Shown: piece after piece, positions 8,177-64,000 of the stretch
Numbering within the stretch: position 1 is the stretch's first letter
Layout of the letters: every line of letters starts with the position of its first letter
Assembly (NCBI GenBank): GCA_963840495.1
Contig: CAWIZN010000047.1
Span: 89,485-153,484, forward strand
Reading direction: 5' to 3'
Origin: an uncultured Candidatus Rokubacteria bacterium
GTDB taxonomy: Bacteria > Methylomirabilota > Methylomirabilia > Rokubacteriales > CSP1-6
Length of the DNA: 64,000 nucleotides
Notes under the pieces: generated by a model
Seen by the model: only the letters and a program-made list of their open reading frames with translations
Database searches by the model: none
What the model was told of the DNA's origin: nothing
Made by a program: the position numbers and the translations under genes

Positions 8177-8195
8177 GCCTGCCGCGCGCGAGCTC

Positions 8196-18736: not shown

Positions 18737-18741
18737 CCAGG

Positions 18742-19389: not shown

Positions 19390-19426
19390 GCGATCAGAGT
19401 GAGGCAGGCGGGCGGCATCGTCCAAT

Positions 19427-21186: not shown

Positions 21187-21232
21187 AAGTGCCATAACCT
21201 CTCGGTCACTGAAGTGCCAGTACCTCTCGGTC
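21187..21232 (+). repeat. tandem 21-bp direct repeat (2 copies, 25-bp period) upstream of the integrase remnant
   Basis: aagtgccataacctctcggtc (21187-21207) and aagtgccagtacctctcggtc (21212-21232), 19/21 identical. Confidence 0.65.
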
Positions 21233-21268
21233 GCTATGCTTGGAGAAAACACTTGGGAGTGAGGTGCG

Positions 21269-22340
21269 ATGAGTAAAAAGGCCCCCGGCGGAGGAGAACA
21301 GGCGGCGTGCCATGGTGGCAGCGGTTCGGGACGGCGCCTCGATGCGATCCGTGACACGGGCTCAGAAGGTGAGCCTGGCGACCGTGCAATGGTGGCTGCG
21401 ACGAGCCGGGCAGCGGTCCTTGGAGGAGGTCGATTGGAGCGACCATGCGCCGATTCCCGGACGGACTCGTCGAACTGATCCTCGGTAGAAGATGCCGTGT
21501 TGATCCTGCGCCGCGAGCTGAAGGAGACGAGTAATCTGGGCGAGTACGGCGCTCAGGCTCTCCACCGCGAGCTAGTGATACGAGGAGGCGCGACGGTGCC
21601 CGCGGTGCGCACCATCGGTCGAATCCTCGAACGCCGAGGTGCGTTGGATGGCCGGCGACGCGTGCCTCGACCTTCCGGCCTCGCCAGGCTGGCATCTCCC
21701 CGACTGCGAGGACGGACGCGCTGAACTCGACAGCTTCGATACCGTCGAGGGGCTCACTTTGGAAGGGGGTCTCCGTCTGGAGGTCCTCAATGTGGTCTCC
21801 TTGCACGGGGCTTGCCGGGCTCGTGGCCGCAGACGCTGGTGACCGCAAAACCGCGGTCGAGGCGCTCGTGGACACTGGCGCGAATTCGGACTGCCGACCT
21901 ATGCCGTCGACAACGACACCGTCTTCCATGGGAGCCACCACGGTCAGGATTCTCTCGGCCTCGTCGTGCGGACCTGCCTGCGGCTCGGGGTTACTCCGGT
22001 CTTCGCGCGGCCACAGGAGAGTGGCTTTCAAGCGGCCGTCGAAAATGTCAACGGCCGCTGGCAAGCCAAAGTTTGGGCTCGCTTCCACCATGCGTTGCTC
22101 GCCGCCCTTCAAGAATGTTCTCGACGTTATATCAGCGCCTACCGCAAGCGCGCCGCCGCCCGGATCGAGGCGCGCCTCCGCGGCGGCCGTTCCCGCCCGC
22201 CTGGCGGCCGGACTTGCAGGCCCATCCGGTCGGGACGGTCATCTACATCCGCCGCAGTTCGGAGGCCGGTGCCGTCAGCCTCCTGGGTCATAGCTTTGCC
22301 GTGGTGCGAGAGCTCCTGACACTTGACCGACACGGTGAGC
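21269..22340 (+). pseudogene. decayed DDE (rve-type) integrase/transposase
   Basis: Pieces lie in all three plus frames. HTH: ..RRRAMVAAVRDGASMRSVTRAQKVSLATVQWWLRRAGQRSLEEVDW.. Then ..ILRRELKETSNLGEYGAQALHRELVIRGGATVPAVRTIGRILERRGALDGRRR.. Catalytic-core-like: ..YAVDNDTVFHGSHHGQDSLGLVVRTCLRLGVTPVFARPQESGFQAAVENVNGRWQAKVW.. There are multiple stops and frame changes, and no matching right-end repeat. Confidence 0.6.
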
Positions 22341-22345
22341 CCGCG

Positions 22346-23152
22346 TCATTTCTTCACCCCGGCGAGAAAGGCGAGGAGCGCGCGGTTGAAGCGCGGCACC
22401 TCCTCGATGAAAAAGGCGTGCCCGCCGGGAAGGATCTTGAGCTTGGCATCGGGGATGAGAGCGGCCAGCCGCCGCGAGAAAACGGGCGGCGTCAGGATGT
22501 CGTCTCCACCAGCACGAGCGCCGGCGCCCGGAGCTTGCCCAGCTCGCGCAGCCGCGTCCCGTTCCACTCGACCAGCCCCCGGCCTTGCCGCTCGATCGCG
22601 TCGGCCTTGGTGGGGAACGGATAGGCGAGCGCACGCTTGACGGCGTCCGCCACGCGCGCGGAGTCGCCGAGGAAGGCGGGCGAGTAGAGCCACGGGAAGA
22701 GCAGGTGGCGGAAACGATCCTCGAGCGAGAGCTGGGGCGCCAGCGCGCGCCATGACTCGATCGTGCGCAGGAAGCGGCCGTCCCCCTCCGCCCACGTGCA
22801 GCACAGGGTGAGGCTCCTGACGCTCGCCGGGTACCGGATCGGCGAGCTCCATGGCGATGGTGCCGCCCATCGAGGCGCCGATCACGTGGGCGCGCTTCAC
22901 GTTCAGGTGATCGAGGAGCGCCCGGGCGTCCTCCGCCAGCTCGCCGGTCGCGTACCGCAGCTCGCGCGGCATGTCGGTCTCGCCCACCCCGCGATTGTCG
23001 AAGGTGATGACGTGATAGCGCGGCGAGAGGTCGCGTACCTGGAAGAGCCACCCGACGCCGGGTCCGCCGAGTCCGCTGATGAGGAGCACGGGGTCGCCGG
23101 CGCCATGCGTCTCGTAGTGCATGCGGATGCCGTTCACGGTCGCGTAGGGCAA
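22346..23152 (-). CDS. alpha/beta hydrolase, two compensating frameshifts as sequenced
   Basis: ORF 22346..23248(-) carries the N-terminus (..VNGIRMHYETHGAGDPVLLISGLGGPG...HVIGASMGGTIAMELA) and the C-terminus (..DDILTPPVFSRRLAALIPDAKLKILPGGHAFFIEE..). The middle roughly 110 aa reads naturally only in another frame (..IRYP..VRSLTLCCTWAEGDGRFLRTIESWRALAPQLSLEDRF..). Junctions are at about 22843-22850 and 22498-22505. TTG start at 23152 with GGAGG upstream. Confidence 0.75.
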   Translation of the reverse strand: MPYATVNGIRMHYETHGAGDPVLLISGLGGPGVGWLFQVRDLSPRYHVITFDNRGVGETDMPRELRYATGELAEDARALLDHLNVKRAHVIGASMGGTIAMELADPVPGERQEPHPVLHVGGGGRPLPAHDRVMARAGAPALARGSFPPPALPVALLARLPRRLRARGGRRQACARLSVPHQGRRDRAARPGAGRVERDAAARAGQAPGAGARAGGDDILTPPVFSRRLAALIPDAKLKILPGGHAFFIEEVPRFNRALLAFLAGVKK

Positions 23153-23171
23153 GGAGCGAAGCCTCCGGGCG

Positions 23172-24177
23172 TTAGAGCGTGAGGGCGACTTTGATCGAAT
23201 CGGGAGCGCGATGCGCCTCGAAGGCATCGGCGATTCGATCGAGGGCAAACCGGTGCGTGAGCAAGCGCTGCCCCTGCACCTGACCGGACGCGAGGAGCGC
23301 CATGGCCTCCGGGAACTCGTCCTGGTAGATCATCGAGCCGAGGATGCTGATCTCCCGCCGCACCACCCAGAAAAACTCGAGCTGGCTCGCCTCGTGGGGC
23401 AGCCCGGTCAAGACGACGCGCCCACCGGGCCGGCACAGCTCGACGGCCTGCCCGACGGCCGGCGCGGTGCCCGCGGTCTCGACGACCAGGTCGACCCCTT
23501 CGCGACCGGACAGCGCCCGCGCCGCCTCGACATGATCCCCCGCGTCCGTGGTGGCGACCGCGTCGGCGCCGAGCGCCCGGGCGAGCGGCAGCCGGCGCGC
23601 CGAACGCCCCACCGCGAGCACCCGGCACCCGCGCGCCTTGAGGACCTGGATGGCGAGGAGCCCGAGGGCGCCGACGCCCAGCACCGCGGCCGTCTCTCCC
23701 GCGCGCCGGCGCGCCGCGCCGCACCGCGCGGACCACGACGGCGAGGGGCTCGGTGAGGAGGAGCTGATCGTCGTCGATCCCGGCGGGCGCGGGCCAGCAG
23801 CAATGGGCGGGCAGCGCCACTTCCTGAGCGAAGCCGCCGTCCACGTCGATGCCCACCGCCGTTCGCGACAGGCAGAGGTTCTTGTTGCCCTCTCGGCACA
23901 GCGGACATACACCGCACGAGTAGTTGGGCTCGACCGCCACCTTGGCCCCGGGCGTGAGCCCGCTCACGCCGGACCCGAGGGCGAGCACACGGCCGATCAG
24001 CTCATGGCCCATCACGCGCGGGTAGTCGACGGCGCGATCGCCGTTCCAGATCCGGTAGTCGGTGCCGCACAGACCGGCGCCCTCGACCCGGATCACGGCT
24101 TCGCCGACGCCGGGCGAAAGCGACGGGCGGGTCTCGATCGTGAGATCTCTCGGCGCGTGGAGGACAGCCGCGATCAT
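23172..24177 (-). CDS. zinc-dependent alcohol dehydrogenase family (threonine/sorbitol dehydrogenase-like), frameshifted as sequenced
   Basis: ORF 23134..24177(-) gives the N-terminus (..GLCGTDYRIW..GHELIGRV..CGVCPLCREGNKNLC..). ORF 23172..23912(-) gives the C-terminus (..AGETAAVLGVGALGLLAIQVLKARG...). The junction is at about 23700-23725. Confidence 0.8.
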
Positions 24178-24202: not shown

Positions 24203-24352
24203 CTAGAGCCTGTCGGAGTGACCCGGCTAGAGCGATGAGAAGGGTCCAGCTGCGAGGCGGCGCCCGATGGCAGCCGCGAGGCGTACTCTCTGTACGTTGA
24301 GCCTGCTGTCGAGGGCGCCTACGCAGCAGATGGGCCCTTCTCATCGCTCTAG
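24203..24352 (+). repeat. long-hairpin intergenic repeat, copy A3
   Basis: ..agcctgtcggagtgacccgg + ctagagcgatgagaagggtccagctgcgaggcggcgcccgatggcagccgcgaggcgtac..tacgttgagcctgctgtcgagggcgcctacgcagcagatgggcccttctcatcgctctag. The terminal CTAG carries the TAG stop of the SDR. It lies between the co-directional SDR and ADH genes. Confidence 0.85.
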
Positions 24353-25110
24353 GCCGCGGAGTGACCGCCGTCGAGAAATACCGTTTGACCGGTCATGTAG
24401 CTCGACGCGGCCGAGGCCAGGTAGACGGCGAGCGGCCCGATCTCTTCCAGGTGGCCGGTGCGGCGCATGGGCACGTCGCGCAGCAGCCGCTCGCGGACCC
24501 TGGCCTGGTCGAACGCCTCCGAGTTCATGTCGGTGACGAACCAGCCGGGCGCGATGGCATTGACCTGGATATTGTGGCGCGCCCATTCCACGCCGAGTGC
24601 GCGGGTCAGCGCGATGACGCCCCCCTTGGACGCCGAGTACGCCGCATAGCCGGGCAGCCCGGCGGCGCCGAGCACGGAGGCCAGGTTGATGACCTTGCCG
24701 GATTCCTGCGCGATCAGCCGTCCCGCGGCGGCTCGGCAGCCGTTGAAGACGCCGATCAGGTTGACCTCGACGGTGCGCCGAAACTCCTCCGGCGCCATCT
24801 CGGCCACCGGCGAGACGCTCGCGACGCCCGAGTTATTGACCACGACGTCGAGCCGGCCCAGCTCAGCCTCCGTGCGCGCGATGAGCGCCTCCACCTGGGC
24901 GTAGTCCGCCACGTCGGTCGGCACGACGATCGCGCGGCGCCCGAGCGCCCGGATCTCGTGGGCGGTCTGCTCGAGCTCGGCCACGGAGCGCGCCGCCACC
25001 GCCACATCGGCCCCGGCGCCCGCCAGCGCCAGCGCCATGGCGCGACCCAGACCGCGGCTCGCGCCAGTGACGACGGCGACCTTGCCGTCGAGGGCGAAGG
25101 CGGAGAGGAC
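24349..25110 (-). CDS. short-chain dehydrogenase/reductase (FabG-like), start unresolved
   Basis: ORF 24349..25038(-) has the YxxxK site (YAAYSASKGG). The Rossmann motif ..FALDGKVAVVTGASRGLGRA lies in frame upstream of the first ATG (25038). No ATG, GTG or TTG occurs between it and the upstream in-frame TGA. Confidence 0.78.
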   Translation of the reverse strand, partial: VLSAFALDGKVAVVTGASRGLGRAMALALAGAGADVAVAARSVAELEQTAHEIRALGRRAIVVPTDVADYAQVEALIARTEAELGRLDVVVNNSGVASVSPVAEMAPEEFRRTVEVNLIGVFNGCRAAAGRLIAQESGKVINLASVLGAAGLPGYAAYSASKGGVIALTRALGVEWARHNIQVNAIAPGWFVTDMNSEAFDQARVRERLLRDVPMRRTGHLEEIGPLAVYLASAASSYMTGQTVFLDGGHSAA

Positions 25111-30379: not shown

Positions 30380-31480
30380 CTACGACCGGGCCGCCAGCCA
30401 GGCGGCGACCTTGGGCCAGCAATGGGTCGAAGCGCCCCGGCCGGCGATGAGCGAGATATGGCCGCCCGGGAGCTCGAGGTATTCCTTGTCCGTGCTCGAC
30501 ACCGCGTCCATCAGCGCCTTCACGCAGGCGGGCGGCGCGATATTGTCTTCCTTCGCCCCCACGGCGAGCACCGGGCAGGCGATGGCCGAGAGCTTGACCG
30601 GCCGCCCGCCCATCACGAGCTCGCCCTTGACGAGCTTGTTCTGCTGGTAGAACTCCTTCACCCACTGGCGGAAGAACTCGCCCGGAAACGGCAGGTACTC
30701 GTTCGCCCACTTGTTGAGGGCGTTGAAGCCCGCGACGTACTCCGGATTCCACAGATTCCACCAGAGGTTCACGTTGGTGCTGAGGTCCATCGTCGGCTTG
30801 AGGAGCTTGAAGCCGAGCTTGACCATGTCGGCGGGGATGGTGCCGAGCGTGTCCACGTACTTGTCGACGTCGAAGTAGCGCGCGTCGAGCCACTGGCCGA
30901 ACATCCCCACCTGGGAGAAGTCGATGGGGCCCGCCATGTCGATGTAGTTCTTGAGGGGGAACTCCGGATGCGTGGTCAGGAAGCACGCCGACAGCGGCGC
31001 GCCCATGCAGTAGCCGAGCACCGACATCTCCGACGCCCCGGACGACTCGAGCGCCTTCCGGGCGAGCCGCGGCAGGATCTTCGTCACCGCGTCCTCCACC
31101 GTGAGGCTATTGTCCTCCGGGCCGAACACGCCCCAGTCGACGAGGTAGAAGTCGAAGCCCTGCTGGGTCATGTGCTCGATGAAGGATGCCTTGGGCATCA
31201 GGTCGAAGATGTACGGCCGGCTGATCCCGAGATTCGGCACGAAGAGCAGCGGGGTGCGGTAGGTGCGCTTGGAGGCGTACCGCCAGAGCCGCGACTTGTT
31301 CTTGCGGTAGATCTCCTCCCGAGGGGTGGGCCCGACCTCGGGCTCCTTCGGGTTCATGACCATCTCGCTCCAGTGCTTCATCCGGAGGAAATTGCGGCGC
31401 GTGTCTTCATCGAGGCGCGCCATCACTTCGGCGGACATGGCCGGCATCTCGGGCATCATCGTGAACAGTTGATCTTTCAT
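30380..31480 (-). CDS. phaC: class III poly(R)-hydroxyalkanoate synthase PhaC (copy 1)
   Basis: ORF 30380..31609(-). About 366 aa with lipase-box-like GYCMGA, plus ..LLFVPNLGISRPYIFDL.., ..FYLVDWG.. Start set to ATG 31480 with GAGGGGGAG upstream. Confidence 0.9.
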   Translation of the reverse strand: MKDQLFTMMPEMPAMSAEVMARLDEDTRRNFLRMKHWSEMVMNPKEPEVGPTPREEIYRKNKSRLWRYASKRTYRTPLLFVPNLGISRPYIFDLMPKASFIEHMTQQGFDFYLVDWGVFGPEDNSLTVEDAVTKILPRLARKALESSGASEMSVLGYCMGAPLSACFLTTHPEFPLKNYIDMAGPIDFSQVGMFGQWLDARYFDVDKYVDTLGTIPADMVKLGFKLLKPTMDLSTNVNLWWNLWNPEYVAGFNALNKWANEYLPFPGEFFRQWVKEFYQQNKLVKGELVMGGRPVKLSAIACPVLAVGAKEDNIAPPACVKALMDAVSSTDKEYLELPGGHISLIAGRGASTHCWPKVAAWLAARS

Positions 31481-31656: not shown

Positions 31657-32226
31657 ATGCCGTCACCCTCCGCGGACGGACGGGCCTATCCTCGGGCCGT
31701 GACGCTCGCCGACGGCGGGACCGTCTCCCTGCGCCTCATGTCGACGGACGACGGGGACCGTCTCGTGGCCTTCGCCCGCGAGCTGCCGCCGGACGATCTG
31801 CTCTTCCTGAGCGTCGACATCACCGATCCGGAGGCGGTAGGGCGCTTCATCGAGGGCCTCGAGGCCGGCCGCATCGTCGGGGTGATCGCCGAGGACGCCG
31901 GCGTGACGGCGGGCTACGCCGCGCTCCTGCACCACGGCGTCACGTGGCAGCGCCACCTGGGGGAGATCTTCATCCAGGTGAGCTCGCGCCATCGGTCGCG
32001 CGGGCTCGGCCGCGCGCTCGCGACCGAGATCTCGGCGATCGCCCGCGACCTCGGGCTGCGGAAATTCATCGCGCGCATGACGCCCGATCAGAAGGGCGCC
32101 GTCAGCACCTTCGAGCGCCTCGGGTTCAAGACCGAGGCGCTGCTCCAGGACTTCGTGATCGACGCCGACGGCCGGACGCGCGACATCCTCGTGATGGCGC
32201 GCGATGTGCCGGCCGCCGCTCCCTGA
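31657..32226 (+). CDS. GNAT acyltransferase, storage-synthase-linked subfamily (GNAT-1)
   Basis: ORF 31657..32226(+). ..AYPRAVTLADGGTVSLRLM..LPPDDLLFLSVDITDP..GYAAL..RSRGLGRAL..ARMTPDQKGAVSTFERLGFKTEALLQDFVID.. TATACT at 31643-31648, 8 nt before the ATG. Divergent from phaC1. Confidence 0.8.
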   Translation: MPSPSADGRAYPRAVTLADGGTVSLRLMSTDDGDRLVAFARELPPDDLLFLSVDITDPEAVGRFIEGLEAGRIVGVIAEDAGVTAGYAALLHHGVTWQRHLGEIFIQVSSRHRSRGLGRALATEISAIARDLGLRKFIARMTPDQKGAVSTFERLGFKTEALLQDFVIDADGRTRDILVMARDVPAAAP

Positions 32227-34086: not shown

Positions 34087-34210
34087 TGTGTCGGAGTAGG
34101 CGACATGGACTCACGTGTCAGCGTCTGGCGTTCCGCTTCGAGCGCCGGCTCCGCCGGCGCAATCCCTCCTGGGGGGAGGCATCGGAAGGGGGGCGAAGCC
34201 CCCTCCGAGG
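34087..34210 (-). repeat. mosaic repeat B2 (GTCGGAGTA module plus GC palindrome plus G5/C5 hairpin)
   Basis: gtgtcggagtagg...ttcgagcgccggctccgccggcgcaatccctcctggggggaggcatcggaaggggggcgaagccccctccgagg is the reverse complement of 51034-51123, with one internal insertion. Confidence 0.75.
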
Positions 34211-37143: not shown

Positions 37144-38225
37144 ACCGAGCGCTCCGAGAGCCAGGTATCGAGCTGGGGCCAGAGTCGTCGGCTGGCATTG
37201 GGCCCCGCCACGAGGCTCACGTGACCGCCCTTGAGCAGGAGCTCCTTCTTGTCGGCGCTCCCGACCATCGCCACGAGATCCTTCGCCGACGCGTAGGGGA
37301 CGATGTGATCGTGCTCGGCCATGACGTGCAGGAAGGGCACCGTGATGCGCTCGAGCACGACCGGCCGGCCGCCGAGCACCAGCTCGTTCTTGTACAGCCG
37401 GTTCTCCCACATGAGCTCCTTGACCGTCTGGCGGAAGCACTCGCCGGGAAACGGGATCTGGTCCGCCGCCCAGCGGTCGAACATGCGATAGCCCTTCACG
37501 AAATCGTCGTTCCACATATTGTCCCAGAGGCGCACCTGCCCGGCCAGGCGCGCCGCCGGCTTCAGCATCTCGAACGACGCGTACATCAGCTCGGGCGGCA
37601 CGTTGCCCAGCGAGTCGACGATGCGATCGACGTCGAAGTAGCGCTTGTCGGTCCACTGGCTGAACAGCGTCATCCCCTCGAAGTTCACCGGCGTGGTGAA
37701 GCAGGCGAGGTTCTTGACCGGGCCGTCCGGGTGCAGCGCCTCGTACAGCACCGCGAGCAGCCCCCCCATGCAATAGCCGATCATGGAGACATCGGGCTCG
37801 CCGCTGTCGCGCCGGATTCGCTCGAGGCAGTCGGGGATGAAGTCGAGGACATAGTCTTCCAGGCGCAGGCGCTTGTCCGCCGGGCGCGGCACGCCCCAGT
37901 CGATCATGTAGACGTCATAGCCCTGGCGGAGGAGGAACTCGATGAAGCTCTGGCCCGGCGTGAGATCGAGGATATAGGCCTTGCTGACCAGCGACATCAC
38001 GAGCAGCACCGGCACGCGGTACACCTCCGGCGCCAAGGGCCGGTAGTGGTAGAGGCGCAAGGTCCCGCGGGCGTACACGACGTCCTTCGGCGTCAGTCCC
38101 ATCTCCGGGGCCCCGGCCGACAGGTACTCGAGCCCCTTGACGTTGCGGAGGAGCGCGCGCTCCACCTCCTCGCGCACCCGGGTCTCGATGACGATCTCCG
38201 CCGGCGCGGCGCCCGGCGCCGTCAT
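37140..38225 (-). CDS. phaC: class III poly(R)-hydroxyalkanoate synthase PhaC (copy 2)
   Basis: Last 361 aa of ORF 37140..39404(-). MTAPGAAPAEIVIETRVREEVERALLRNVKGLEYL..., ..VLLVMSLVSKAYILDL.., ..VYMIDWG.., and the box GYCMGG. The ATG overlaps the upstream stop (ATGA). Confidence 0.9.
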   Translation of the reverse strand: MTAPGAAPAEIVIETRVREEVERALLRNVKGLEYLSAGAPEMGLTPKDVVYARGTLRLYHYRPLAPEVYRVPVLLVMSLVSKAYILDLTPGQSFIEFLLRQGYDVYMIDWGVPRPADKRLRLEDYVLDFIPDCLERIRRDSGEPDVSMIGYCMGGLLAVLYEALHPDGPVKNLACFTTPVNFEGMTLFSQWTDKRYFDVDRIVDSLGNVPPELMYASFEMLKPAARLAGQVRLWDNMWNDDFVKGYRMFDRWAADQIPFPGECFRQTVKELMWENRLYKNELVLGGRPVVLERITVPFLHVMAEHDHIVPYASAKDLVAMVGSADKKELLLKGGHVSLVAGPNASRRLWPQLDTWLSERSV

Positions 38226-44032: not shown

Positions 44033-46099
44033 ATGACGCAGCCGAGCCTCAACCGTCGCCTCACCACGATCGATTCCACCTTCCTCTATCTCGAGAAGGC
44101 CGAGCAGCCCATGCACATCGGAGGCTGCATGCTCTACGAGGGCCGCGTCTCCCGCGAGGAGCTGGCGCGCCTGCTCCTCGACCGACTCCATCGGCTGCCC
44201 CGCTACCGGCAGAAGGTCGTGTTCCCCCCGTTCACCCTCGCGCATCCGACGTGGGAAGACGACCCGGACTTCGACATCGCTCACCACATCGACGAGGTCA
44301 CGCTGCCCGCCCCCGGCGACGACCGCACGATGGCCGAGATCGGCGGCCGCGTGTACGGGGGGATGCTGGATCGCGGCCACCCGCTCTGGAAGCTGATCCT
44401 GCTCCAGGGCCGATCCGACGGCCATACCGCGATCGTCTGGAAGATCCACCACGCGATGATCGACGGCATGTCCGGGGTCGACTTGACCATGGTGCTTCAC
44501 GATCTGACACCCGACGCCGAGCCCCCGACCCCGCCGGCGGCGCCGTGGCAGCCTCGTCCGCTGCCCGATCCGATCACCCTGCTGCAGGATGCCGTGCGCG
44601 ACCGCTTGACCGAGGCCGCCCAGAGCTTCACCGACTCGGCATTCGGCCTGCTCCGCCCGACCGAGATCAGCGCGCGCGCCCGGCAGCTCACGGGGGCCGT
44701 CACGACCGCGCTGCCCTCCTTGCTCAAGCCGGCGCCGAGCACGCCGTTCAATGCCCCGCTGTCGACCGAGCGCCGCTTCGCCTGGCATGGCCTGCCCTTC
44801 GCGGACATCCGCGCGATCCGCTCCGCGCTGGGCGGCACCGTGAACGACGTCGTGCTCGCCATCCTGAGCGGCGCCCTCGGCCGTTACCTCCGCGCGCGGG
44901 GCCTTCCGACCGAGGGCGTCGAGCTGCGCGCGATGTGCCCGGTGAGCATGCGCAGGCCGGACGAGCGCGGCGCCCTCGGCAACCTCGTGTCGATCATGAT
45001 CGCCCCGCTCTATGTCGGCATCGCCGATCCCGTCGCGCGCCTCACGGCCGAGCGCCAGGCCATGGAGCGGCTCAAGGGCGAGGATCAGGCGGGCGGGCTC
45101 TACTCGCTGCAGCAGCTCATGAACGGCGTCCCCGCCGCGTGGCAGGCGCTCGCGGGCGCGATCACCATCCCCCAGACCCTGTTCAATACGGTCTCCACCA
45201 ATGTGCCGGGACCGCAGATCCCGCTCTATCTGGGTGGGCGCCGCCTGCTGAACTGGATTCCGCTCGGGATCTGCTCGACGGGCGTCGGCCTGTTCGTCGC
45301 CATCCTGACCTATGACCGGCGGCTCACGTTCGGCCTCACCTTCGACCCCGCGCTCATCGCCGACGGCTGGGAGATCGCCGATCACCTGCGCCTGGCGTTT
45401 GCGGAGCTGCGGAGCGCCGCCGAGGCGGCCCAACCGGCGGCCTTCGCGGGGGTTGCGCGCACCCGCGGCCGCGGTACTCGCGGACGCGGCGGCCGCGGCG
45501 CGATAGGCACGCCGATGCCGACCGCGGACGCCCCGGGCACGCGCCGCGCCTACCCGCGCGCCATCACGCTCGACAGCGGCACCGCCATCACCCTGCGATT
45601 CATGACCGCCGCCGACGCCACCGCCGTCGTCTCGTTCGCGAAGAGCCTGCCCGCGGACGACCTCCTGTTCCTGCGCACGGACATCACGAGCCCCTCCGTC
45701 GTCGCGCAGTGGGTGAAGAACCTCGCGGCGGGGCGCACCGTCACGGTCATCGCCGAGGCGGGCGGCGAGATGGCCGGCTATGCGAGCCTGCACCACCACG
45801 AGACGAGCTGGCAGCGCCACCTGGGCGAGATTCGCATCCAGGCGGGGCAGCGCTATCGCTCGCAGGGCCTCGGACGGGGGCTCGCGGGAGAGGTCTTCGC
45901 GCTGGCCACGGAGCTGGGGCTGCGCAAGATCGTCGCGCAGATGACGGTCGATCAGAAGGGCGCGATCGCCACCTTCGAGCGGCTCGGCTTCCGCGCCGAG
46001 GCGCTCCTGTCGGATTTCGTGATCGACCGCGACGGGCGCACGCGCGATCTCATGATCATGGCCTACGACGTCGACGGGTTGACCGAGCACCTGGACTGA
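44033..46099 (+). CDS. wax ester synthase/diacylglycerol acyltransferase (WS/DGAT), read as one ORF with a C-terminal GNAT (GNAT-3)
   Basis: ORF 43988..46099(+). MTQPSLNRRLTTIDSTFLYLE.., catalytic HHAMIDG, ..NVPGPQIPLYLGG.. Then an R/G-rich linker and the GNAT domain. Start set to ATG 44033 (GGAGGA 10 nt upstream; a TATACT -10 lies at 43981-43986). Confidence 0.88.
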   Translation: MTQPSLNRRLTTIDSTFLYLEKAEQPMHIGGCMLYEGRVSREELARLLLDRLHRLPRYRQKVVFPPFTLAHPTWEDDPDFDIAHHIDEVTLPAPGDDRTMAEIGGRVYGGMLDRGHPLWKLILLQGRSDGHTAIVWKIHHAMIDGMSGVDLTMVLHDLTPDAEPPTPPAAPWQPRPLPDPITLLQDAVRDRLTEAAQSFTDSAFGLLRPTEISARARQLTGAVTTALPSLLKPAPSTPFNAPLSTERRFAWHGLPFADIRAIRSALGGTVNDVVLAILSGALGRYLRARGLPTEGVELRAMCPVSMRRPDERGALGNLVSIMIAPLYVGIADPVARLTAERQAMERLKGEDQAGGLYSLQQLMNGVPAAWQALAGAITIPQTLFNTVSTNVPGPQIPLYLGGRRLLNWIPLGICSTGVGLFVAILTYDRRLTFGLTFDPALIADGWEIADHLRLAFAELRSAAEAAQPAAFAGVARTRGRGTRGRGGRGAIGTPMPTADAPGTRRAYPRAITLDSGTAITLRFMTAADATAVVSFAKSLPADDLLFLRTDITSPSVVAQWVKNLAAGRTVTVIAEAGGEMAGYASLHHHETSWQRHLGEIRIQAGQRYRSQGLGRGLAGEVFALATELGLRKIVAQMTVDQKGAIATFERLGFRAEALLSDFVIDRDGRTRDLMIMAYDVDGLTEHLD
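45515..46099 (+). other. GNAT-3 module (domain of, or separate gene after, the WS/DGAT)
   Basis: MPTADAPGTRRAYPRAITLDSGTAITLRFM..LPADDLLFLRTDITSP..GYASL..RSQGLGRGL..AQMTVDQKGAIATFERLGFRAEALLSDFVID.. It begins like GNAT-1 (MPSPSADGRAYPRAV..). A TAG in the +1 frame ends 8 nt before this ATG (45504-45506). Confidence 0.8.
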
Positions 46100-46945: not shown

Positions 46946-47054
46946 GAGTTCGAACCCCCTCCCGCGTCCTTGCGGCGAGTACCACGCAGAGTGTCACACA
47001 GATGACGCACCCTGGCAAATGTATAGCGCGGCGCGCATTCACGGGAGAGGGCTA

Positions 47055-47075
47055 GAAGGGGGCAGCGCCCCCTTC
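47055..47075. repeat. G5/C5 mini-hairpin module
   Basis: gaagggggcagcgcccccttc, immediately left of repeat A4. Confidence 0.6.
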
Positions 47076-47084
47076 CGGTTCGCG

Positions 47085-47251
47085 CTAGGAGCCTGTCGGA
47101 GTAACCCGGCTAGAGCGAGGAGAAGGGTCCAGCTGCGAGGCGGCGCCCGGCGGCCGCCGGCGCAGCGCGTAGCGCGTTTCTGACGGTCTGAGCCGTCGCG
47201 TGCTCGAGGCCGGCGCCGACGAACGCAGATGGGCCCTTCTCCTCGCTCTAG
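47085..47251 (+). repeat. long-hairpin intergenic repeat, copy A4 (longer, divergent centre)
   Basis: gctaggagcctgtcggagtaacccgg + ctagagcgaggagaagggtccagctgcgaggcggcgcccgg...gacgaacgcagatgggcccttctcctcgctctag. The terminal CTAG carries the TAG stop of the SCP2 gene. Confidence 0.8.
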
Positions 47252-47603: not shown

Positions 47604-48353
47604 CTAGAAGGTGAACAGATCCATTCCACCCGTGACCGTGAGCACGGCACCGGTGATGTACCGCGCGCGCTCCGAGCACAGAAACGCGATGGCGTGGGCC
47701 ACGTCCGCCGGCTCCCCTTCCCGCTGCATCGCCACGCGCTTGACCATCCGCTCGTACAGGGGCGAGAGATTCGCGTTGGGGCCGATGATGCCGGGGGCGA
47801 TCACGTTGGACGTCACGTTGTGCCGCGCGCCCTCGAGGGCCACCGACTTGGCGAATCCGATCACGCCCATCTTGCTCGTCGAGTAGGCGGCCTGGCCGAA
47901 GCCGCCCATCAGCCCCGCGATCGAGGCCATGCAGATCACCCGGCCCCACTTGCGTTCCCGCATGCCGGGGAACACCGCCTTGGTGACATTGTACGTTCCC
48001 GTCAGATTGATCTTCAGGTTCAGATCCCAGTCCTCGTCGCCCATGTCCTTGAGCTGGCCCATCGTGTAGATGAAGCCCGCATTGTTCACGCAGATGTCCG
48101 CGGGCCCGACCTCGCTCTCCGCCCGTGGAACGATCTCGGCGAGCGCCGCGCGGTCCGTGATGTCGACGGCATAGCCGCGCGCCGTCCCGCCGCCGCCGAC
48201 GATCTCGTTGGCCGTCTCGGCCGCGCCCTCTCCGTTCAGGTCGAGGATGATGAGCTTGCAGCCCTCCGCGGCCAGCGTGAGGCAGTCCTGCTTGCCGAGG
48301 CTTCGCGCCCCGCCCGTGACCAGTGCCACCTTACCCGCGATGCCGAGGTCCAT
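47604..48353 (-). CDS. short-chain dehydrogenase/reductase (3-oxoacyl reductase FabG-like)
   Basis: ORF 47604..48353(-), intact. GKVALVTGGARSLG, NNAG, YSTSK. Confidence 0.88.
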   Translation of the reverse strand: MDLGIAGKVALVTGGARSLGKQDCLTLAAEGCKLIILDLNGEGAAETANEIVGGGGTARGYAVDITDRAALAEIVPRAESEVGPADICVNNAGFIYTMGQLKDMGDEDWDLNLKINLTGTYNVTKAVFPGMRERKWGRVICMASIAGLMGGFGQAAYSTSKMGVIGFAKSVALEGARHNVTSNVIAPGIIGPNANLSPLYERMVKRVAMQREGEPADVAHAIAFLCSERARYITGAVLTVTGGMDLFTF

Positions 48354-48426
48354 CAGCTAGCTCGCTCCGCTCGCACTCATCTCGGATCCGCTCGCCTCGC
48401 CTTCGGCTGCGCCTCGCTCGCCGAGA

Positions 48427-48571
48427 ACCCGTCGGGAAACCCGGCTAGAGCGATGAGAAGGGTCCAGCTGCGAGGCGGCGCCCGAAGGCCGCACGCGAGG
48501 CGTAGTCGCTCTACGTTGAGCGTGCGGCCGAGGGCGCCAACGAAGCAGATGGGCCCTTCTCATCGCTCTAG
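48427..48571 (+). repeat. long-hairpin intergenic repeat, copy A5 (best-formed)
   Basis: acccgtcgggaaacccgg + ctagagcgatgagaagggtccagctgcgaggcggcgcccgaaggccgcacgcgaggcgtag tcg ctctacgttgagcgtgcggccgagggcgccaacgaagcagatgggcccttctcatcgctctagc. Outer stem of 19 bp and central stem ggccgcacg/cgtgcggcc. The terminal CTAG carries the TAG stop of the crotonase gene. Confidence 0.88.
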
Positions 48572-49341
48572 CGGCCCTTGAACTCTGCCGGGCGCTTGGC
48601 GAAGAAGGCCTGGATGCCCTCGCTCGCGTCGTCGGTCTTGAGCGATTGGACGAACGCGCGAATCTCGATCTCGATGGCCTGGTCGATGGGCGCCTGGAGA
48701 CCGTCGTCCACGGCCTCGATGATGAGCCGCGTGGCGACGGGCGGCCGCTTGCCCAGCTCGCGGCAGAGCGCCTTGGCGTCGGCGAGCGTCTCGCCCTCCT
48801 TCGAGAGCCGGTTGACGAGGCCGATGCGGTGGCACTCGGCGGCGGGGATCTGCGTGCCGAGGATGAGGTACTCGAGGGCCAGGCCTCGTCCGACGAGCCG
48901 CGGAAGGCGCTGGCTGCCCCCGAAGCCAGGCGTGATTCCCAGGTTCGACTCCGTCTGCCCCATCCGGGCGCCCTCCTTGAGGATGCGGATGTGGCAGCCC
49001 ATCGCGATCTCACAGCCCCCGCCCAGCGCATGGCCGTTGATGGCGGCCACCACGGGCTTGGGAAAGCGCTCGATCCGCCGCACGACGCTATTGCCGAACC
49101 GGATGAAGGTCGCCACATCGGGCCCCGAGAAGGCATTGCCGAGATCGGCGCCCGCGCAGAAGATCCTGTCGCCCCCTCCCGTGATGATGACCGACCTGAC
49201 CGCGCCGTCGGCCTCCACGTCGGACAGCGCCGCGTTCAGCTCGCGCATCAGCGTCTCGCTGATCGCATTGGCGGGCGGACGGTTGAGCGTGATCACCGCG
49301 TACGTCTCCTCGCGATCGAGGACGATGGTCTCGTACGGCAT
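48568..49341 (-). CDS. enoyl-CoA hydratase/isomerase (crotonase family)
   Basis: ORF 48568..49341(-), intact. ..ITLNRPPANAI.., ..FCAGADL.., ..AAINGHALGGGCEIAMGC.. Confidence 0.9.
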   Translation of the reverse strand: MPYETIVLDREETYAVITLNRPPANAISETLMRELNAALSDVEADGAVRSVIITGGGDRIFCAGADLGNAFSGPDVATFIRFGNSVVRRIERFPKPVVAAINGHALGGGCEIAMGCHIRILKEGARMGQTESNLGITPGFGGSQRLPRLVGRGLALEYLILGTQIPAAECHRIGLVNRLSKEGETLADAKALCRELGKRPPVATRLIIEAVDDGLQAPIDQAIEIEIRAFVQSLKTDDASEGIQAFFAKRPAEFKGR

Positions 49342-51028: not shown

Positions 51029-51033
51029 ACGAC

Positions 51034-51123
51034 TCGGAGGGGGGCTCCGCCCCCTTCCGATGCCTCCCCCGAACAGCGGATTGCGCCGGCGAAGCCGGCG
51101 CTCGAACACGGTTACTCCGACAC
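51034..51123 (+). repeat. mosaic repeat B1 (G5/C5 hairpin plus GC palindrome plus GTTACTCCGAC module)
   Basis: tcggaggggggctccgcccccttccgatgcctcccccgaacagcggattgcgccggcgaagccggcgctcgaacacggttactccgacac. It is the reverse-complement match of 34087-34210. The module gttactccgac is the complement of the gtcggagtaac found at the left edge of the A copies. Confidence 0.75.
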
Positions 51124-51200
51124 GCTCCTCGCCAGTCGAGGCCTCGTCGGCTGGCTCCGAGTCTGCCCCGACGTTCGCCCGGCCAGGATATACTGCGCGC

Positions 51201-52160
51201 ATGCGTCAGCCTACGGCGATTGCCCTCCTCGCGCTCTTTCTCTGCGGTTGCTCCGTGCTCTCGATCGACTTCCAGCCGCGTATCCGGCCCCTCGAGGAGG
51301 AAACACTCGAGGGCCACGGGCGCGCGAAGATCCTCCTCGTCGACCTCTCCGGCGTGCTCCAGGACGAGTCGGTCAGCTTCTCCCTCGGCGCTCCCCCGCC
51401 CCGCGTGCCTCTGCTCGCGCGGGTCCGCGAGGAGCTCGAGAAGGCCGAGAAAGACGACCGGGTCCGGGCGCTGATCGTCAAGATCAATAGCCCGGGCGGC
51501 ACCATCACGGCCTCCGACATCCTCTACCGCGAGATCGTCGAGTTCAAGGCGCGCCGGAAGATTCCGGTGACGGCGGTCATCATGGACGTCGGGGCCTCGG
51601 GCGGCTACTACGTGGCGCTGGCCGCCGACACCATCGTCGTCCATCCGACTTCGGTGACGGGGAGCCTGGGCGTCGTCATGCTCACGGTCAATGCCCAGGG
51701 CCTCATGGAGAAGATCGGCGTCGCCCCGCTCGCCATCAAGTCGGGGCCGATGAAGGATGCCGGCTCCCCCTTCCGCCCCCTCACCCAGCCGGAGCTCCAG
51801 GTGTTCCAGGGCGTCATCGACGACATGTACGGCCGCTTCGTTCGGCTGATCGCCGAATCGCGGAAGATTCCCGAGGAGCGCGTGCGATCGCTCGCCGACG
51901 GGCGCATCTACACCGCCCAGCAGGCGCTCGCCCTCGGCCTCGTCGACCGGATCGCCTACCTCGACGACGTCGTCCGTACCACGAAAAAGGCGCTCGGCGT
52001 CGATGAAGCGCGCGTCGTCATGTACCACCGTCCCCGGGAATATCGCGCGACGATCTACTCGGAAGCGGCGACCGTCCCCGGATCGAGCGGCGCCCTCGGG
52101 CAGCTCACGGGCTTCCTCGGTGGGCCCGGGCCGCGCTTCATGTACCTCTGGTGGCCCTGA
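51201..52160 (+). CDS. sppA: signal peptide peptidase SppA (36K type), lipoprotein-like signal
   Basis: ORF 51060..52160(+) from ATG 51201. MRQPTAIALLALFLCGCS.., ..ALIVKINSPGGTITASD.., ..MDVGASGGYYVALAAD.. TATACT at 51189-51194, 6 nt before the ATG. Confidence 0.86.
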   Translation: MRQPTAIALLALFLCGCSVLSIDFQPRIRPLEEETLEGHGRAKILLVDLSGVLQDESVSFSLGAPPPRVPLLARVREELEKAEKDDRVRALIVKINSPGGTITASDILYREIVEFKARRKIPVTAVIMDVGASGGYYVALAADTIVVHPTSVTGSLGVVMLTVNAQGLMEKIGVAPLAIKSGPMKDAGSPFRPLTQPELQVFQGVIDDMYGRFVRLIAESRKIPEERVRSLADGRIYTAQQALALGLVDRIAYLDDVVRTTKKALGVDEARVVMYHRPREYRATIYSEAATVPGSSGALGQLTGFLGGPGPRFMYLWWP

Positions 52161-52291
52161 GCGCAGGATGCTGAAAAAGGCCCATCTGCTTCGTTGGCGC
52201 CCTCGGCAGCCGGCTCAACGTAGAGCGACTACGCCTCGCCGGCTGCCTTCGGGCGCCGCCTCGCATCTGGACCTTTTTGAGCATCCTGCGC
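52161..52291 (-). repeat. long-hairpin intergenic repeat, copy A6 (reverse orientation, different outer stem)
   Basis: gcgcaggatgctgaaaaaggcccatctgcttcgttggcgccctcggcagccggctcaacgta..tacgcctcgccggctgccttcgggcgccgcctcgcatctggacctttttgagcatcctgcgc. It starts 1 nt after the sppA TGA. Confidence 0.85.
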
Positions 52292-52323
52292 GTTCTGGCA
52301 GAGGCGCCTAGGCTCAGCAGGCT

Positions 52324-53178
52324 TTACGTCTTCGTCTCGCTCGATCCCCGGAGCTGGTAGATCGCCTTGTGGCGGATGTGAGCGACGGGGCGCTTGCCCT
52401 CGGCCAGGAGCAAGAGGTCGAGCTCGACGAACTGGTGTCCCTTGCGCTCGAAGAGGGTCCCGACCCGCGCCCGCGTCTCGAGGCGCTCGCCGACGCGAAG
52501 CGCGCCCAGGTGCTGCCCCTCGCTCTCCGCGTGGATCCACGGGCTCACGATGACATTGCGGCTCAAGGCCCGATTGGCCTCGTGCAGATACAACCCGGGA
52601 TGGGCGGGCGCGGCCGGGCCGCCATAGAGCGCGAGCGGCTCGCCGACGCGGTCGAGGAAGGCCCGCGCCGTCGCCGCATCCAAGACAAGCTCGGGCGTGC
52701 CCAGCACGGGCCGGGCGGCCAGGACCTCCCGGCTCACCCGAGGGCGCTCGTCGGGCAGCGGCGCCGCGGGATAGTTCCCCGGATCCGGTGCCGCTGGGCT
52801 CGTGCCCTCCGTGAGGCCGAAGGTCGCCGTGGCGCACAGCTCACCGGCGCTGTTCACCGCGCGCGCCTCGATCATCACGCCCTGGCCCGTCAGCGAAGCC
52901 ACCGCGGCTTCGATCACGACCGGCTCGTCGAAGTAGATGGGGCTCAGAAAGCGCGCCCTGAAGGTGCCGCGCTCGAGCCACGGCACGCCGAGCGCGGCCA
53001 CGACGGGATGGGTCATCCACGCGTATACCGTCACGCCGGGCACGAGGCCGCCGCGAAAGCCGAGCTCGCGGGCGAGCCCGTCCTCGTGGATCTTGTTCTC
53101 CGTCACGTCCGCCGGCATCTGGGCGCTCACGCGGTGGCGGGGGAGCGTGCTGCCGGCGGCGAGCGTCGCGAGGCTCAT
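52324..53178 (-). CDS. MaoC-like/hotdog-fold protein
   Basis: ORF 52324..53217(-) from ATG 53178 (GGAGGA upstream). ..NKIHEDGLARELGFRGGLVPGVTVYAWM.. and a second hotdog half ..LYLHEANRALSRNVIVSPWIHAESE.. Confidence 0.68.
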   Translation of the reverse strand: MSLATLAAGSTLPRHRVSAQMPADVTENKIHEDGLARELGFRGGLVPGVTVYAWMTHPVVAALGVPWLERGTFRARFLSPIYFDEPVVIEAAVASLTGQGVMIEARAVNSAGELCATATFGLTEGTSPAAPDPGNYPAAPLPDERPRVSREVLAARPVLGTPELVLDAATARAFLDRVGEPLALYGGPAAPAHPGLYLHEANRALSRNVIVSPWIHAESEGQHLGALRVGERLETRARVGTLFERKGHQFVELDLLLLAEGKRPVAHIRHKAIYQLRGSSETKT

Positions 53179-53191
53179 CGGATCCTCCGTG

Positions 53192-53866
53192 TCACTTCTT
53201 CTCGATCCGGGCGCCATAGCCGCCCGCCCGGTCCTGCTGCTCGTTCCACTTGTCCCACTCGGCGTCGCGCTTCTCGCGCTTGAGCGTGCCCGTCTCCTTG
53301 GGCGCCCCCACCGGCGGCACGATCAGCGCCTGATCCTGCGCGAGCGCACGCTGCCACCCCTCTCCTGACACCGTCACTCCCCCGTGATACACGGCCACGA
53401 CGACGGAGCCGTCCGGGTTCATGCCGATGGTGGCCCCGCCGCCGCGGGCGGTGACGGTCGCGGGTCCCGCGCGCACCTCGATGTGAGTGGAGACCGGGCT
53501 GTTCGGCATGACGGACACCCAGAGCAGGCCGCCATCCATGCGCAGGCGCGTCGGGCCCGGGGTCACCGGTGCATCGTCGGCGGCGAAGACGATTTGAGTG
53601 CGAGCGCCGAGCCGGAGCGCCTGCCCGCTCGCGGTGAGCACGGTGAGGCGGCCCGCGATGGTGCGCACCGCGTCGCCCGCCGACAGCTCGTCCCGCAGGG
53701 CCGCCGCCGCCCACGGCCCCGACTTCCGCGACAGCTCGGCGCGGCCGCCGAGGGTCGCGATCTGCGCGGGCAGCTCCTGCGGCTGGGCCGCCGCGAGGCA
53801 CGGCCACGCGCCGAAGACGGCGGTGATGAAGGCGAACAGCAGCAGACGGCGTTCACGCGCGCTCAT
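53192..53866 (-). CDS. FecR-domain secreted protein
   Basis: ORF 53192..53866(-). Signal peptide MSARERRLLLFAFITAVFGAWPCLAAA, then ..ATLGGRAELSRKSGPWAAAALRDELSAGDAVRTIAGRLTV.. Confidence 0.68.
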   Translation of the reverse strand: MSARERRLLLFAFITAVFGAWPCLAAAQPQELPAQIATLGGRAELSRKSGPWAAAALRDELSAGDAVRTIAGRLTVLTASGQALRLGARTQIVFAADDAPVTPGPTRLRMDGGLLWVSVMPNSPVSTHIEVRAGPATVTARGGGATIGMNPDGSVVVAVYHGGVTVSGEGWQRALAQDQALIVPPVGAPKETGTLKREKRDAEWDKWNEQQDRAGGYGARIEKK

Positions 53867-63277: not shown

Positions 63278-63830
63278 ATGCTATTCGATACATGTCACGC
63301 ATCGGATACCTGTCGCGGGCCGCGCGCGGCGCGCGGCCCGTGGCTCGCGGCCCTGGTCGGCTTCGTCGTCTCCCTCCTCGTCCTCGTCCCGAACGCCGCC
63401 TCCCCTTACGACACCCGGAGCCTCACGGCGATCGTCACGCAGGTCGTCGACGGGGACACGATCTACGTGCGCGTCGACGGGCGAATCGAGAAGGTCCGGT
63501 ATATCGGGATGGACACGCCCGAGACCAAGCATCCGGTCAAAGGTAGAGAACCGGGCGGCATGGAGGCGACCGCCCTCAATCGCCGCCTCGTGATGGGCAA
63601 GACGGTCCGGCTCGAGCTCGATGTGCGGGAGCGCGACCGCTACCGGCGGCTGCTCGCCTACGTGTACGTGGGGGACCTCATGGTCAACGCGGAGCTGGTC
63701 AGGCTCGGCTACGCCCACGCCATGACGGTGCCGCCCAACGTGGCCCACGCGAGCCGCTTCGTGAGCCTCGAGCGGCAGGCGCGGGAGGCCGGCCGCGGCC
63801 TGTGGGCGGCCGTCCGCCGGGGGGCGATAA
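63278..63830 (+). CDS. thermonuclease (SNase-like) with an N-terminal TM/signal; stop lost as sequenced
   Basis: Own translation from ATG 63278 (not in the track: no stop before the window end). ..LAALVGFVVSLLVLVPNAASPYDTRSLTAIVTQVVDGDTIYVRVDGRIEKVRYIGMDTPETKHP...RYRRLLAYVYVGDLMVNAELVRLGYAH..ERQAREAGRGLWAA.. Removing one G from the G6 run (63819-63824) puts the repeat-borne TAA (63828-63830) in frame. Confidence 0.75.
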
Positions 63831-63934
63831 GGGGCCATCTGCTTCGTTGGCGCGCTCGTCCGGGCGCTCAACGTACAGAGAGTACGCCTCGCGCCCGGCC
63901 TTCGCGCGCCGCCTCGCAGCTGACCCCTTCTCGC
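63826..63934 (-). repeat. long-hairpin intergenic repeat, copy A7 (reverse orientation)
   Basis: gataaggggccatctgcttcgttggcgcgctcgtccgggcgctcaacgta..gtacgcctcgcgcccggccttcgcgcgccgcctcgcagctgaccccttctcgcc. Confidence 0.82.
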
Positions 63935-64000
63935 CGCCCGGCGCCGTTCCCACCGTGGACGAGTCGCCCGGAAAGACGGTGGCGTGGTTCCGTTCGAGCG

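Follow-up and report, generated by a model that had tools for sequence, protein, structure and literature searches.

The window analysed in this study is a 64,000-nt stretch of contig CAWIZN010000047.1 from an uncultured Candidatus Rokubacteria bacterium. In this window, a sequence-only reading had flagged an intergenic hairpin repeat at 48427-48571 (+ strand; copy A5) as one member of a repeat family whose stems change on both arms together. The flagged copy is situated between two minus-strand genes, one encoding an enoyl-CoA hydratase (48568-49341) and the other a short-chain dehydrogenase (SDR; 47604-48353). It is composed of an extension (48427-48444), an inner CTAG (48445-48448), an imperfect palindrome running to 48567, and a terminal CTAG (48568-48571) that provides the TAG stop codon of the hydratase gene. 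The copy folds at -117.8 kcal/mol, and its profile match (48446-48569) scored 123.7 bits on the + strand versus 19.6 bits on the other; because the profile separates the strands this clearly, the element has a defined orientation despite its near-palindromy. Between A5 and the SDR start codon (48351-48353) lies the remainder of an insertion complex (48354-48426, -), which is absent from about 75 orthologous loci and contains a CTAG (48357-48360) together with one unit of another, GCGAGC-rich small repeat. As set out below, the repeats constitute a family of small mobile DNA elements, non-coding and hitherto undescribed, that is found in soil Rokubacteria.

Copies in the window were recovered in three ways: by repeat finding, by alignment of the intervals proposed in the sequence-only reading, and by profile search with nhmmer. 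Seven full copies and one decayed copy were obtained, the element being an imperfect palindrome of 125-150 nt. All seven copies proposed earlier were refound by the profile search at the same coordinates or a few bases off, the earlier intervals being slightly wider because a left-hand extension of ~22 nt had been included. Moreover, what had been offered as a possible half-copy proved to be real, namely an internally deleted copy matching over its 3' arm only (7215-7273, + strand, E = 1.2e-5). The 15-nt core GCGAGGCGGCGCCCG was found seven times in the window when at most one mismatch was allowed. The G+C content of the window is ~69.5% (65-73.5% across 2-kb windows), and GC skew keeps one sign throughout, the cumulative skew being monotonic. 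Five copies, counting the decayed one, are oriented on the + strand and three on the - strand, and the genes neighbouring the copies are ordinary metabolic genes as judged by Pfam.

The sequence-only reading had listed a MITE (miniature inverted-repeat transposable element) among its candidates and empty sites in related strains as a check; empty alleles were indeed found, at the stop codons of two genes, and the MITE candidate was thereby borne out. A metagenome scan based on the hydratase gave 80 orthologous loci with 78-99% identity (contigs and loci are cited here by L numbers). In about 75 of the 80 loci, the stop codon of the hydratase gene directly adjoins or overlaps the start of the dehydrogenase gene, as in ggccgcTAGTGGATCTCGG (L115) or ggccggTAGTGGACC (L123), and the whole stretch corresponding to 48354-48570 is missing; these empty sites read ...GGCCGC TAG (0-8 nt) GTGGAYCTCGG. 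Among the 80 loci, the element followed the hydratase stop only in L106, L107, and L119, and it was also present in five more contigs encoding an identical hydratase protein. The filled sites read GGCCGC-TAG-[AGCGATGA ... GAGCTAGC]-TAG-TGGACC, which is an insertion with repeated TAG/CTAG flanks, and the insert is modular in that CTAG bounds each of its parts (the palindrome, the extension, and the fragment of the other small repeat). A second site, at the end of an SCP2-domain gene, was compared across 38 orthologous loci collected by a motif search for the gene end TTCCAGGTCTAG. The SCP2 stop (GTCTAG) was empty in more than 30 of these loci; it was filled in the window (copy A4), in L130, and in L177, each time by a different subfamily, and L106 retained a remnant. 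This site is most simply read as having received repeated independent insertions into the same CTAG.

Turnover was also evident among very close relatives. The hydratase coding sequences of L101-L106 were 97-98% identical to that of the window, with every difference in L101-L105 being silent; over the same comparison, the insert was 45-68% identical and ranged from 144 to 217 nt in length. The window and L101 shared the central stem GGCCGCACG/CGTGCGGCC, and L102, L104, and L105 carried a left arm of the CAGCCGG type, as in copy A6. The copy in L102 was chimeric, its arms being of two types, and those in L103 and L105 contained apical insertions. The A6 site has a full element in the window, one with a partial deletion in L101, and none in L103. 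These comparisons show that copies undergo rapid gain, partial deletion, loss, and exchange between near-identical strains. The hydratase/SDR junction at L117:3263-3300 is otherwise empty and has a tandem duplication of the final 20 nt of the hydratase gene (...GGCAACTAG ACGAGTTCGAGGGCAACTAG CGGATGG), which may be the footprint of an insertion followed by excision at CTAG.

The boundaries of the element were then related to CTAG and to stop codons. CTAG was present at the right end of 56 of 101 copies, compared with an expectation of 0.5%, and TA at the right end of 76 of 101. In the window, CTAG occurs 30 times versus ~180 times expected from base composition, and thus is six-fold under-represented; of these 30 sites, 14 coincide with element boundaries, and the majority of the remainder are at gene ends. 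A stop codon fell exactly within the terminal CTAG in 25 copies and within the outer-left CTAG in 15. Genes adjoining elements ended in TAG in 82 cases, in TGA in 15, and in TAA in 10 (77% TAG), whereas the corresponding numbers for all called open reading frames (ORFs) were 462, 429, and 83 (TAG ~47%). Even the latter proportion of TAG stops is high for a genome of ~70% G+C. These sequence counts show that the preferred target is the palindrome CTAG, which in this genome persists almost exclusively at TAG stops.

The family as a whole was collected by a pattern scan of species-representative genomes, in which it was found in at least 100 contigs (L025 and L100 were chance matches). Nearly all of these belong to metagenome-assembled genomes from soil and groundwater assigned to Candidatus Rokubacteria, Rokuibacteriota, or Methylomirabilota. 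Copies are also present in Microflora Danica contigs 0.4-1.3 Mb in length. The density in the window was ~1 copy per 9 kb, compared with ~1 per 70 kb across loci selected without regard to the element, and the high density in the window thus indicates a lineage-specific expansion. In the orientation of A5, the consensus of the commonest subfamily is CTAG-CAGGATGCTGAAAAAC-CC-GCAGGCTGCTCAAAAAGGTCCAGATGCGAGGCGGCGCCCGAAGGCCGCACGCGAGGCGTACTCCCTGTACGTTGAGCGTGCGGCCGAGGGCGCCAACGAAGCAGATGGGCCTTTTTCAGCAGCCTG-CTAG. The two ends of the element form inverted repeats, most commonly TA|GCAGGCTGCTCAAAAAGG ... CCTTTTTCAGCAGCCTGC|TA; a parent element would be expected to have ends matching TAGCAGGCTGCTSAAAAAGG, CTAGAGCGATGAGAAGGG, or GCAGGCGGCSGAGAAGGG. 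Pairing in the outer stem (GCAGGCTGCT.../...AGCAGCCTGC, or its counterpart in other subfamilies) was found in 94% of cells. Many copies have a second, outer left terminus ~22 nt upstream, short forms consist of the palindrome bounded directly by CTAG on both sides, and "long apex" variants with a homologous ~65-nt apical insert recur in several genomes. An Rfam comparison, which had been named earlier as a check, matched the window to no family at gathering thresholds and, with E allowed up to 10, yielded no more than two hits, of 12-16 bits and due to chance. Also, no match was obtained among PLSDB plasmids (blastn with the consensus) or among IMG/VR viral contigs (pattern scan), and the family was not found described in the literature searched on Rokubacteria repeats, on the core sequence, or on MITEs together with stop codons and CTAG.

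Bins with other phylum labels also held copies, in some instances on several contigs of one bin. These labels were Acidoferrum (L005, L011, and L042), Limnocylindria (L009, L012, L047, and L048), Actinomycetes (L057), Binatia (L058), Planctomycetota (L083), Chloroflexia (L094), and Sulfotelmatobacter (L064 and L091, both with a clearly divergent subfamily). Such copies could reflect either mislabelled or contaminated bins or genuine spread past Rokubacteria.

Each copy had been predicted to fold into a hairpin of roughly 60 bp per arm, and every window copy did so, at -86 to -118 kcal/mol. The stem variants quoted in support of compensatory change were all present (ggccgcacg/cgtgcggcc, ggcagccgg/ccggctgcc, and gNccgggcg/cgcccggNc). 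As for the internal loops described as conserved, the short loops GA, GAA, GC, and AA were constant, but the sequences that had been quoted as loops also take in a conserved 7-bp helix, GGCGCCC/GGGCGCC. Covariation was assessed on an alignment of 99 copies from ~100 contigs, in which 24 columns were fixed by the search pattern and are uninformative either way. RNAalifold predicted 39 pairs, 23 of them with compensated double changes. When the full 50-pair structure was counted and compared with 500 shuffles and with slid structures, 95.0% of cells were paired, versus 88.8% in shuffles and 34-46% in slid structures; 30 of the 50 pairs were changed on both sides (14.8 shuffled, 11-18 slid); double-sided changes were present in 273 cells (58.5 shuffled, 41-60 slid); and the covariation score was 0.200 (0.084 shuffled, 0.03-0.06 slid). 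On each of five measures, none of the 500 shuffles matched the observed value. Moreover, 21 distinct, perfectly complementary variants were found for the 10-bp outer stem and 16 for the 9-bp central stem. Because there are 16-21 complementary variants per stem, the covariation is not due to two or three subfamilies. The compensatory stem changes were thus upheld on 99 copies, with many independent compensated variants around constant short loops, and the earlier statement that these are not plain sequence repeats stands, given that pairing is kept through those variants. Copies exchanging with or replacing one another, and not point mutation with later compensation, are the likely source of part of the covariation; whichever its origin, mismatched stems do not persist and asymmetric loops do.

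The two strands of the element are not equivalent in folding. In 100 of 100 copies, the more stable fold was that of the strand on which A5 was presented (mean -108.8 versus -94.8 kcal/mol for the complement), because this strand has three conserved G.U pairs and purine-only loops. These three pairs were G.U in 81-85 of the 99 copies and, when altered, became Watson-Crick. The internal loops, listed in the consensus as GA/GA, GA/GAA, GC/AA, GAA/GA, and GA/GA, were all classed as purine-only on this strand, and the same loop letters are read 5' to 3' on both arms, which is the opposite of a palindromic double-stranded binding site. Purine loops and G.U pairs, as features of the aligned copies, point to probable selection on a folded single strand. 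At variable pairs, G.U exceeded A.C (87 versus 49 cells, 22 versus 12 columns), and given that this excess was not significant (sign test, p = 0.12), it was not used as evidence for the functional strand. Gene contexts were assigned with a simple gene caller based on G+C content at third codon positions (GC3). The 44 fully classified contexts comprised 25 convergent, 18 co-directional, and one divergent; in the co-directional ones, the transcribed strand was the complement in 14 and the more stable strand in 4. The step from covariation to a "selected RNA" was therefore not sustained: Watson-Crick compensation is strand-symmetric, the G.U excess had p = 0.12, and the less stable strand is usually the one transcribed (14 versus 4).

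The remaining copies in the window occupy similar sites. A1 (8055-8182, -; 92.3 bits; fold -106.4 kcal/mol) belongs to a subfamily with the outer stem GCAGGCGGCCGAGAAGGGG / CCCCTTATCGGCCGTCTGC and ends without CTAG. It lies between convergent genes, which by Pfam encode a SnoaL-domain protein (7353-8072, +) and a fragment of a solute-binding protein (8226-8864, -). A2, a full copy with left extension (18733-18889, +; profile match 18765-18890, 116.8 bits), makes up the whole spacer separating the convergent TAG stops of QueF (18371-18736, +) and a GNAT acetyltransferase (18886-19425, -): its outer CTAG (18733-18736) gives the stop of QueF, the extension follows, and the palindrome (18761-18889) begins at an inner CTAG at 18761 and ends with the terminal CTAG (18886-18889) that gives the stop of the acetyltransferase gene. 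A3, likewise full with left extension (24203-24352, +; profile match 24228-24350, 113.1 bits), has CTAGs at 24203, 24227, and 24349, the last of which is the stop of an SDR gene (24349-25038, -). On its other side is the start of an alcohol dehydrogenase gene (23134-24177, -), and because the two flanking genes are co-directional, their transcript carries the reverse complement of A3. A4 (47085-47251, +; profile match 47112-47250, 48.5 bits) is a full copy with left extension and a divergent apex; it has CTAGs at 47085, 47110, and 47248, the terminal one being the stop of the SCP2-domain gene (...TTCCAGGTCTAG). A6 (52159-52293, -; 131.2 bits) is a full copy of the commonest subfamily (GCAGGATGCTCAAAAAGG / CCTTTTTCAGCATCCTGC) and lies between convergent genes for an S49 peptidase (51060-52160, +) and a thioesterase (52324-53217, -). 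A7 (63818-63941, -; 102.3 bits) is a full, folded copy of the A1 subfamily. In the decayed copy (7202-7273, +; profile match 7215-7273, 24.3 bits, limited to profile positions 80-137), the 3' arm, of a GCCGCACCTCCGC variant, directly follows a CTAG and the initial ~12 nt of the left arm, and this direct junction indicates an internal deletion.

We conclude that the element is mobile DNA rather than a fixed RNA gene, and that the family probably consists of miniature non-coding mobile elements of the MITE type in Candidatus Rokubacteria, mobilised in trans. With respect to the list of bacterial-MITE features in PMC2229807, the element is shorter than 200 bp, non-coding, dispersed in many copies, bounded by terminal inverted repeats, and found at filled and empty sites with a duplicated target, and long stem-loops would be formed by its transcripts. 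Insertion takes place at sites that already existed, and the element has repeated TA, TAG, or CTAG flanks. Judging from the sequences, since the element has G as its first base at both ends, insertion into C-TA-G would give C-TA-[G...C]-TA-G and rebuild a TAG for genes reading in from either side. Insertions at stop codons would spare the gene and hence accumulate at gene ends. Movement would depend on a transposase whose gene is presumed to lie elsewhere in the genome. Tentatively, the likeliest mobiliser is a DDE enzyme of the IS630/Tc1-mariner kind, duplicating TA within CTAG; an IS5- or IS701-like enzyme with a 4-bp CTAG duplication is the alternative. For IS630, duplication of TA within CTAG has been documented (PMC2577343, table 1, citing Tenzen and Ohtsubo 1991), and the flanks of the L011 copy (C-TA...TA-A) fit a 2-bp TA duplication better than a 4-bp one. 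The hairpin may be kept because a single-stranded folded form matters, either as transcript in 3' untranslated regions and intercistronic spacers or as a DNA strand during mobilisation, and any effects on mRNA ends would be a by-product and not the reason for the family's existence.

Several observations weigh against a DDE-mobilised MITE. No transposase was found among the 20 window proteins scanned, and when the terminal 18-20 nt were searched with up to three mismatches in 1.1 Mb of related loci, no occurrence outside known copies lay beside a transposase and no autonomous element was found; the mobilising enzyme is accordingly a postulate. TA or CTAG is missing from one or both ends in about one quarter of the copies, A1, A6, A7, and L177 among them, and since CTAG is itself palindromic, the duplication may be read as 2, 3, or 4 bp. 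In addition, a DDE transposase acting on double-stranded ends alone leaves unexplained the 60 bp of covarying stem and the purine loops on the same strand, and the three subfamilies at one site could in principle have come from exchange between copies and not from independent insertion. It is conceivable, if improbable, that the hairpin serves, in single-stranded form and on one strand specifically, as substrate for a mobilisation or processing system so far undescribed for elements of such size and common to the unrelated small hairpin repeats of Rokubacteria that target CTAG or stop codons; this could be an enzyme reading the 60-bp helix with its tandem G.A loops on one DNA strand, or a system that requires a transcript for propagation.

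Two further explanations take the folded strand as their starting point. According to the first, the repeats are REPIN-like elements, and a domesticated HUH (Y1) transposase, of the RAYT/IS200 type, reads the hairpin of one strand and moves it as single-stranded DNA, CTAG being the cleavage or target tetranucleotide that is present once in the flank and once at the element end without true duplication. Conserved strand-specific features (the three G.U pairs and the purine loops GA/GA, GA/GAA, and GAA/GA), the better fold of the same strand in 100 of 100 copies, and stems that covary without sequence conservation, as in REPINs (PMC3116915), are in keeping with such a mechanism, and an element inserting beside a tetranucleotide and ending in the same one would produce the filled sites observed; moreover, ~8 copies end in CTAC, the complement of GTAG. 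However, the element ends are mutually inverted repeats, as in DDE elements; they carry (C)TAG, and the GTAG/CGTC tag (PMC3733652) is missing. Furthermore, the arms of ~60 nt are not self-palindromic and so form no doublet of REPs, the mixed orientation (five on +, three on -) on a stretch of monotonic skew argues against lagging-strand-specific insertion, and no Y1 transposase was found among the window proteins scanned. We therefore consider an HUH substrate rather unlikely, and the suggestion of a RAYT/IS200-type substrate in the sequence-only reading was not supported. An integron origin, with the repeats as attC-type single-stranded hairpin sites behind gene cassettes, was rejected on gene context and has only the slightest probability. 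The repeats do resemble attC sites in being imperfect palindromes of that length directly 3' of ORFs, with structure better conserved than sequence, and GTTGAGC fits GTTRRRY; but this motif, the sole match of its kind, is near the apex and not at an end, it has no RYYYAAC partner, no integrase is present, the copies, in either orientation, are spaced at 1-20 kb among large genes of housekeeping type, and filled and empty sites occur inside a conserved operon.

Alternatively, the family might be kept mainly as a host RNA, which could stabilise 3' ends, be processed by RNase III or RNase E, or terminate transcription in both directions between convergent genes, with mobility being ancient or incidental. 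This would account for the 23-30 compensated pairs and for loops conserved across many metagenome genomes, for the location directly past stop codons, and for the avoidance of divergent promoter regions (1 of 44 fully classified contexts). The commonest subfamily also has A5 before and T5 after the inner helix (AAAAAGG...CCTTTTT) on both strands, and ERIC is known to alter the stability of neighbouring mRNA depending on its orientation (PMC2229807). On the other hand, ~75 of the 80 orthologous operon junctions do without the element, and its presence varies among strains whose flanking gene is 98% identical. The A5/T5 runs are lacking in six of the seven window copies, copies with T-runs are not depleted between co-directional genes, and a simple terminator scan found none. 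Likewise, the strand transcribed in co-directional contexts is usually the pyrimidine-loop one (14 versus 4), and the excess of G.U over A.C at variable pairs was not significant (p = 0.12). Maintenance as a host RNA is thus judged unlikely as the main explanation, and a trans-mobilised MITE is preferred.

An insertion within the element was encountered at L119:3313-4885 (WNGB01049741.1), where the apex of the orthologous copy is interrupted, with GCACGC on one side and TCAACGTAC on the other, by ~1.57 kb encoding a 373-aa IS110-family transposase (PF02371, E = 1.3e-15) followed by ~365 nt of non-coding DNA. IS110-family elements are known to target REP-type repeats via bridge RNAs (PMC11208160, PMC12288879), and the hairpin family may be a multi-copy landing site for IS110-type elements in Rokubacteria. 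IS110 was rejected as the mobiliser of the family, given that its insertion in L119 is secondary and lies in the apex, not at the element ends.

Other small repeats accompany the family. An unrelated small hairpin repeat of ~35-45 nt, CGGAGGGGGC-N4-6-GCCCCCTCCG, was found in the window at 8190-8215, 34172-34209, 47052-47088, and 51033-51070, and past the SCP2 stop in L101, L103, L145, L147, and L158. It is located at CTAG/TAG stop sites and is CTAG-bounded at 47052...47088, and several small palindromes thus seem to share one target. A third small repeat with a unit of ~41 nt, GGCGAGCCGCAGCCGRAGGCGAGGCGAGCGGAT..., is present in the window at 48361-48423 and elsewhere at L032:5961-6040, L048:257-340, and L040:5265-5420, as well as past the hydratase stop in L110, L174, and L180. 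It occurs singly, in tandem arrays, or as the "long apex" insert (L018, L049, L105, and L130), and the order of its motifs resembles that of the 5' arm of the main element (GCGAGGCG..CCGAAGGC..GCGAGGCG). Diverged direct repeats of 71-75% identity were also noted in coding regions of the window (31857-32156 versus 45721-46020, and 30828-31184 versus 37591-37947). They resemble paralogous genes and have no relation to the hairpin family; the ORFs overlapping the second pair match alpha/beta-hydrolase and PhaC-type families. The lowest G+C content of the window (~65%) was found at 19400-22200, where the long ORFs, all on the minus strand (19476-20078, 20054-20797, and 21234-22112), gave no Pfam match and did not pass the GC3 coding test.

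Rokubacteria, which are uncultured, are abundant in soil and have large genomes whose repeat content is essentially undescribed. At ~1 copy per 9 kb in the lineage of the window, the family is relevant for metagenome assembly and binning, and it affects gene calling through spurious ORFs within elements and stop codons within element ends; copies could also be used as a strain-level marker. By targeting the rarest tetranucleotide of the genome, which is mainly left in TAG stops, and by rebuilding the stop, the element would be a near-harmless transposon. In addition, stems that diverge fast and stay complementary around constant purine loops form a large natural data set on the upkeep of hairpins at the DNA versus the RNA level.

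The family was compared with known small repeats of bacteria. REP sequences are defined by a GTAG or CGTC tag ending a palindrome of 20-40 nt, and a REPIN is made up of two inverted units (PMC3733652, PMC3116915). REPINs resemble the present family in having a long hairpin as the replicating unit, compensated stem variants in one genome, hundreds of copies, and enrichment between convergent genes (PMC3116915), but the Rokubacteria element has no such tag, its arms are not small palindromes, its inverted-repeat ends are bounded by (C)TAG, and no RAYT gene was seen among the window proteins. The Correia/NEMIS elements of Neisseria are likewise MITEs of 107-155 bp with TA duplication and transcribed hairpins, and their internal-segment size variants recall the "long apex" copies of Rokubacteria; in contrast, they have ends of 24-26 bp and a non-palindromic interior with an IHF site and promoters, whereas pairing in the Rokubacteria element spans the whole element. 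RUP, a MITE of Streptococcus pneumoniae, has been attributed to IS630-Spn1 (PMC2229807). It is also a non-coding element of ~100-150 bp with terminal inverted repeats and insertion at TA, and the CTAG preference and TA duplication of IS630 fit the pattern seen in Rokubacteria; the link of RUP to IS630-Spn1 lies in the similarity of their ends, whereas no parent of the Rokubacteria element was found in the related loci scanned. ERIC/IRU (127 bp) is similar in length, forms one long imperfect hairpin over the whole element, and has a terminal TA with target duplication; it, too, lies in transcribed intergenic spacers beside stop codons in both orientations, with filled and empty sites between strains (PMC2229807). 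The two differ in that there is no sequence similarity between them, in base composition (~68% G+C in Rokubacteria versus A+T-rich ERIC), in the far greater local density (1 per 9 kb), CTAG/TAG-stop target, and uncultured phylum of the Rokubacteria element, and in that ERIC is conserved in sequence whereas the Rokubacteria stems diversify quickly. By the features given in PMC2229807, save for an identified parent element, the family qualifies as a bacterial MITE, best read as one of the ERIC/Correia/RUP kind, and its mode of working is closest to that of ERIC and RUP.

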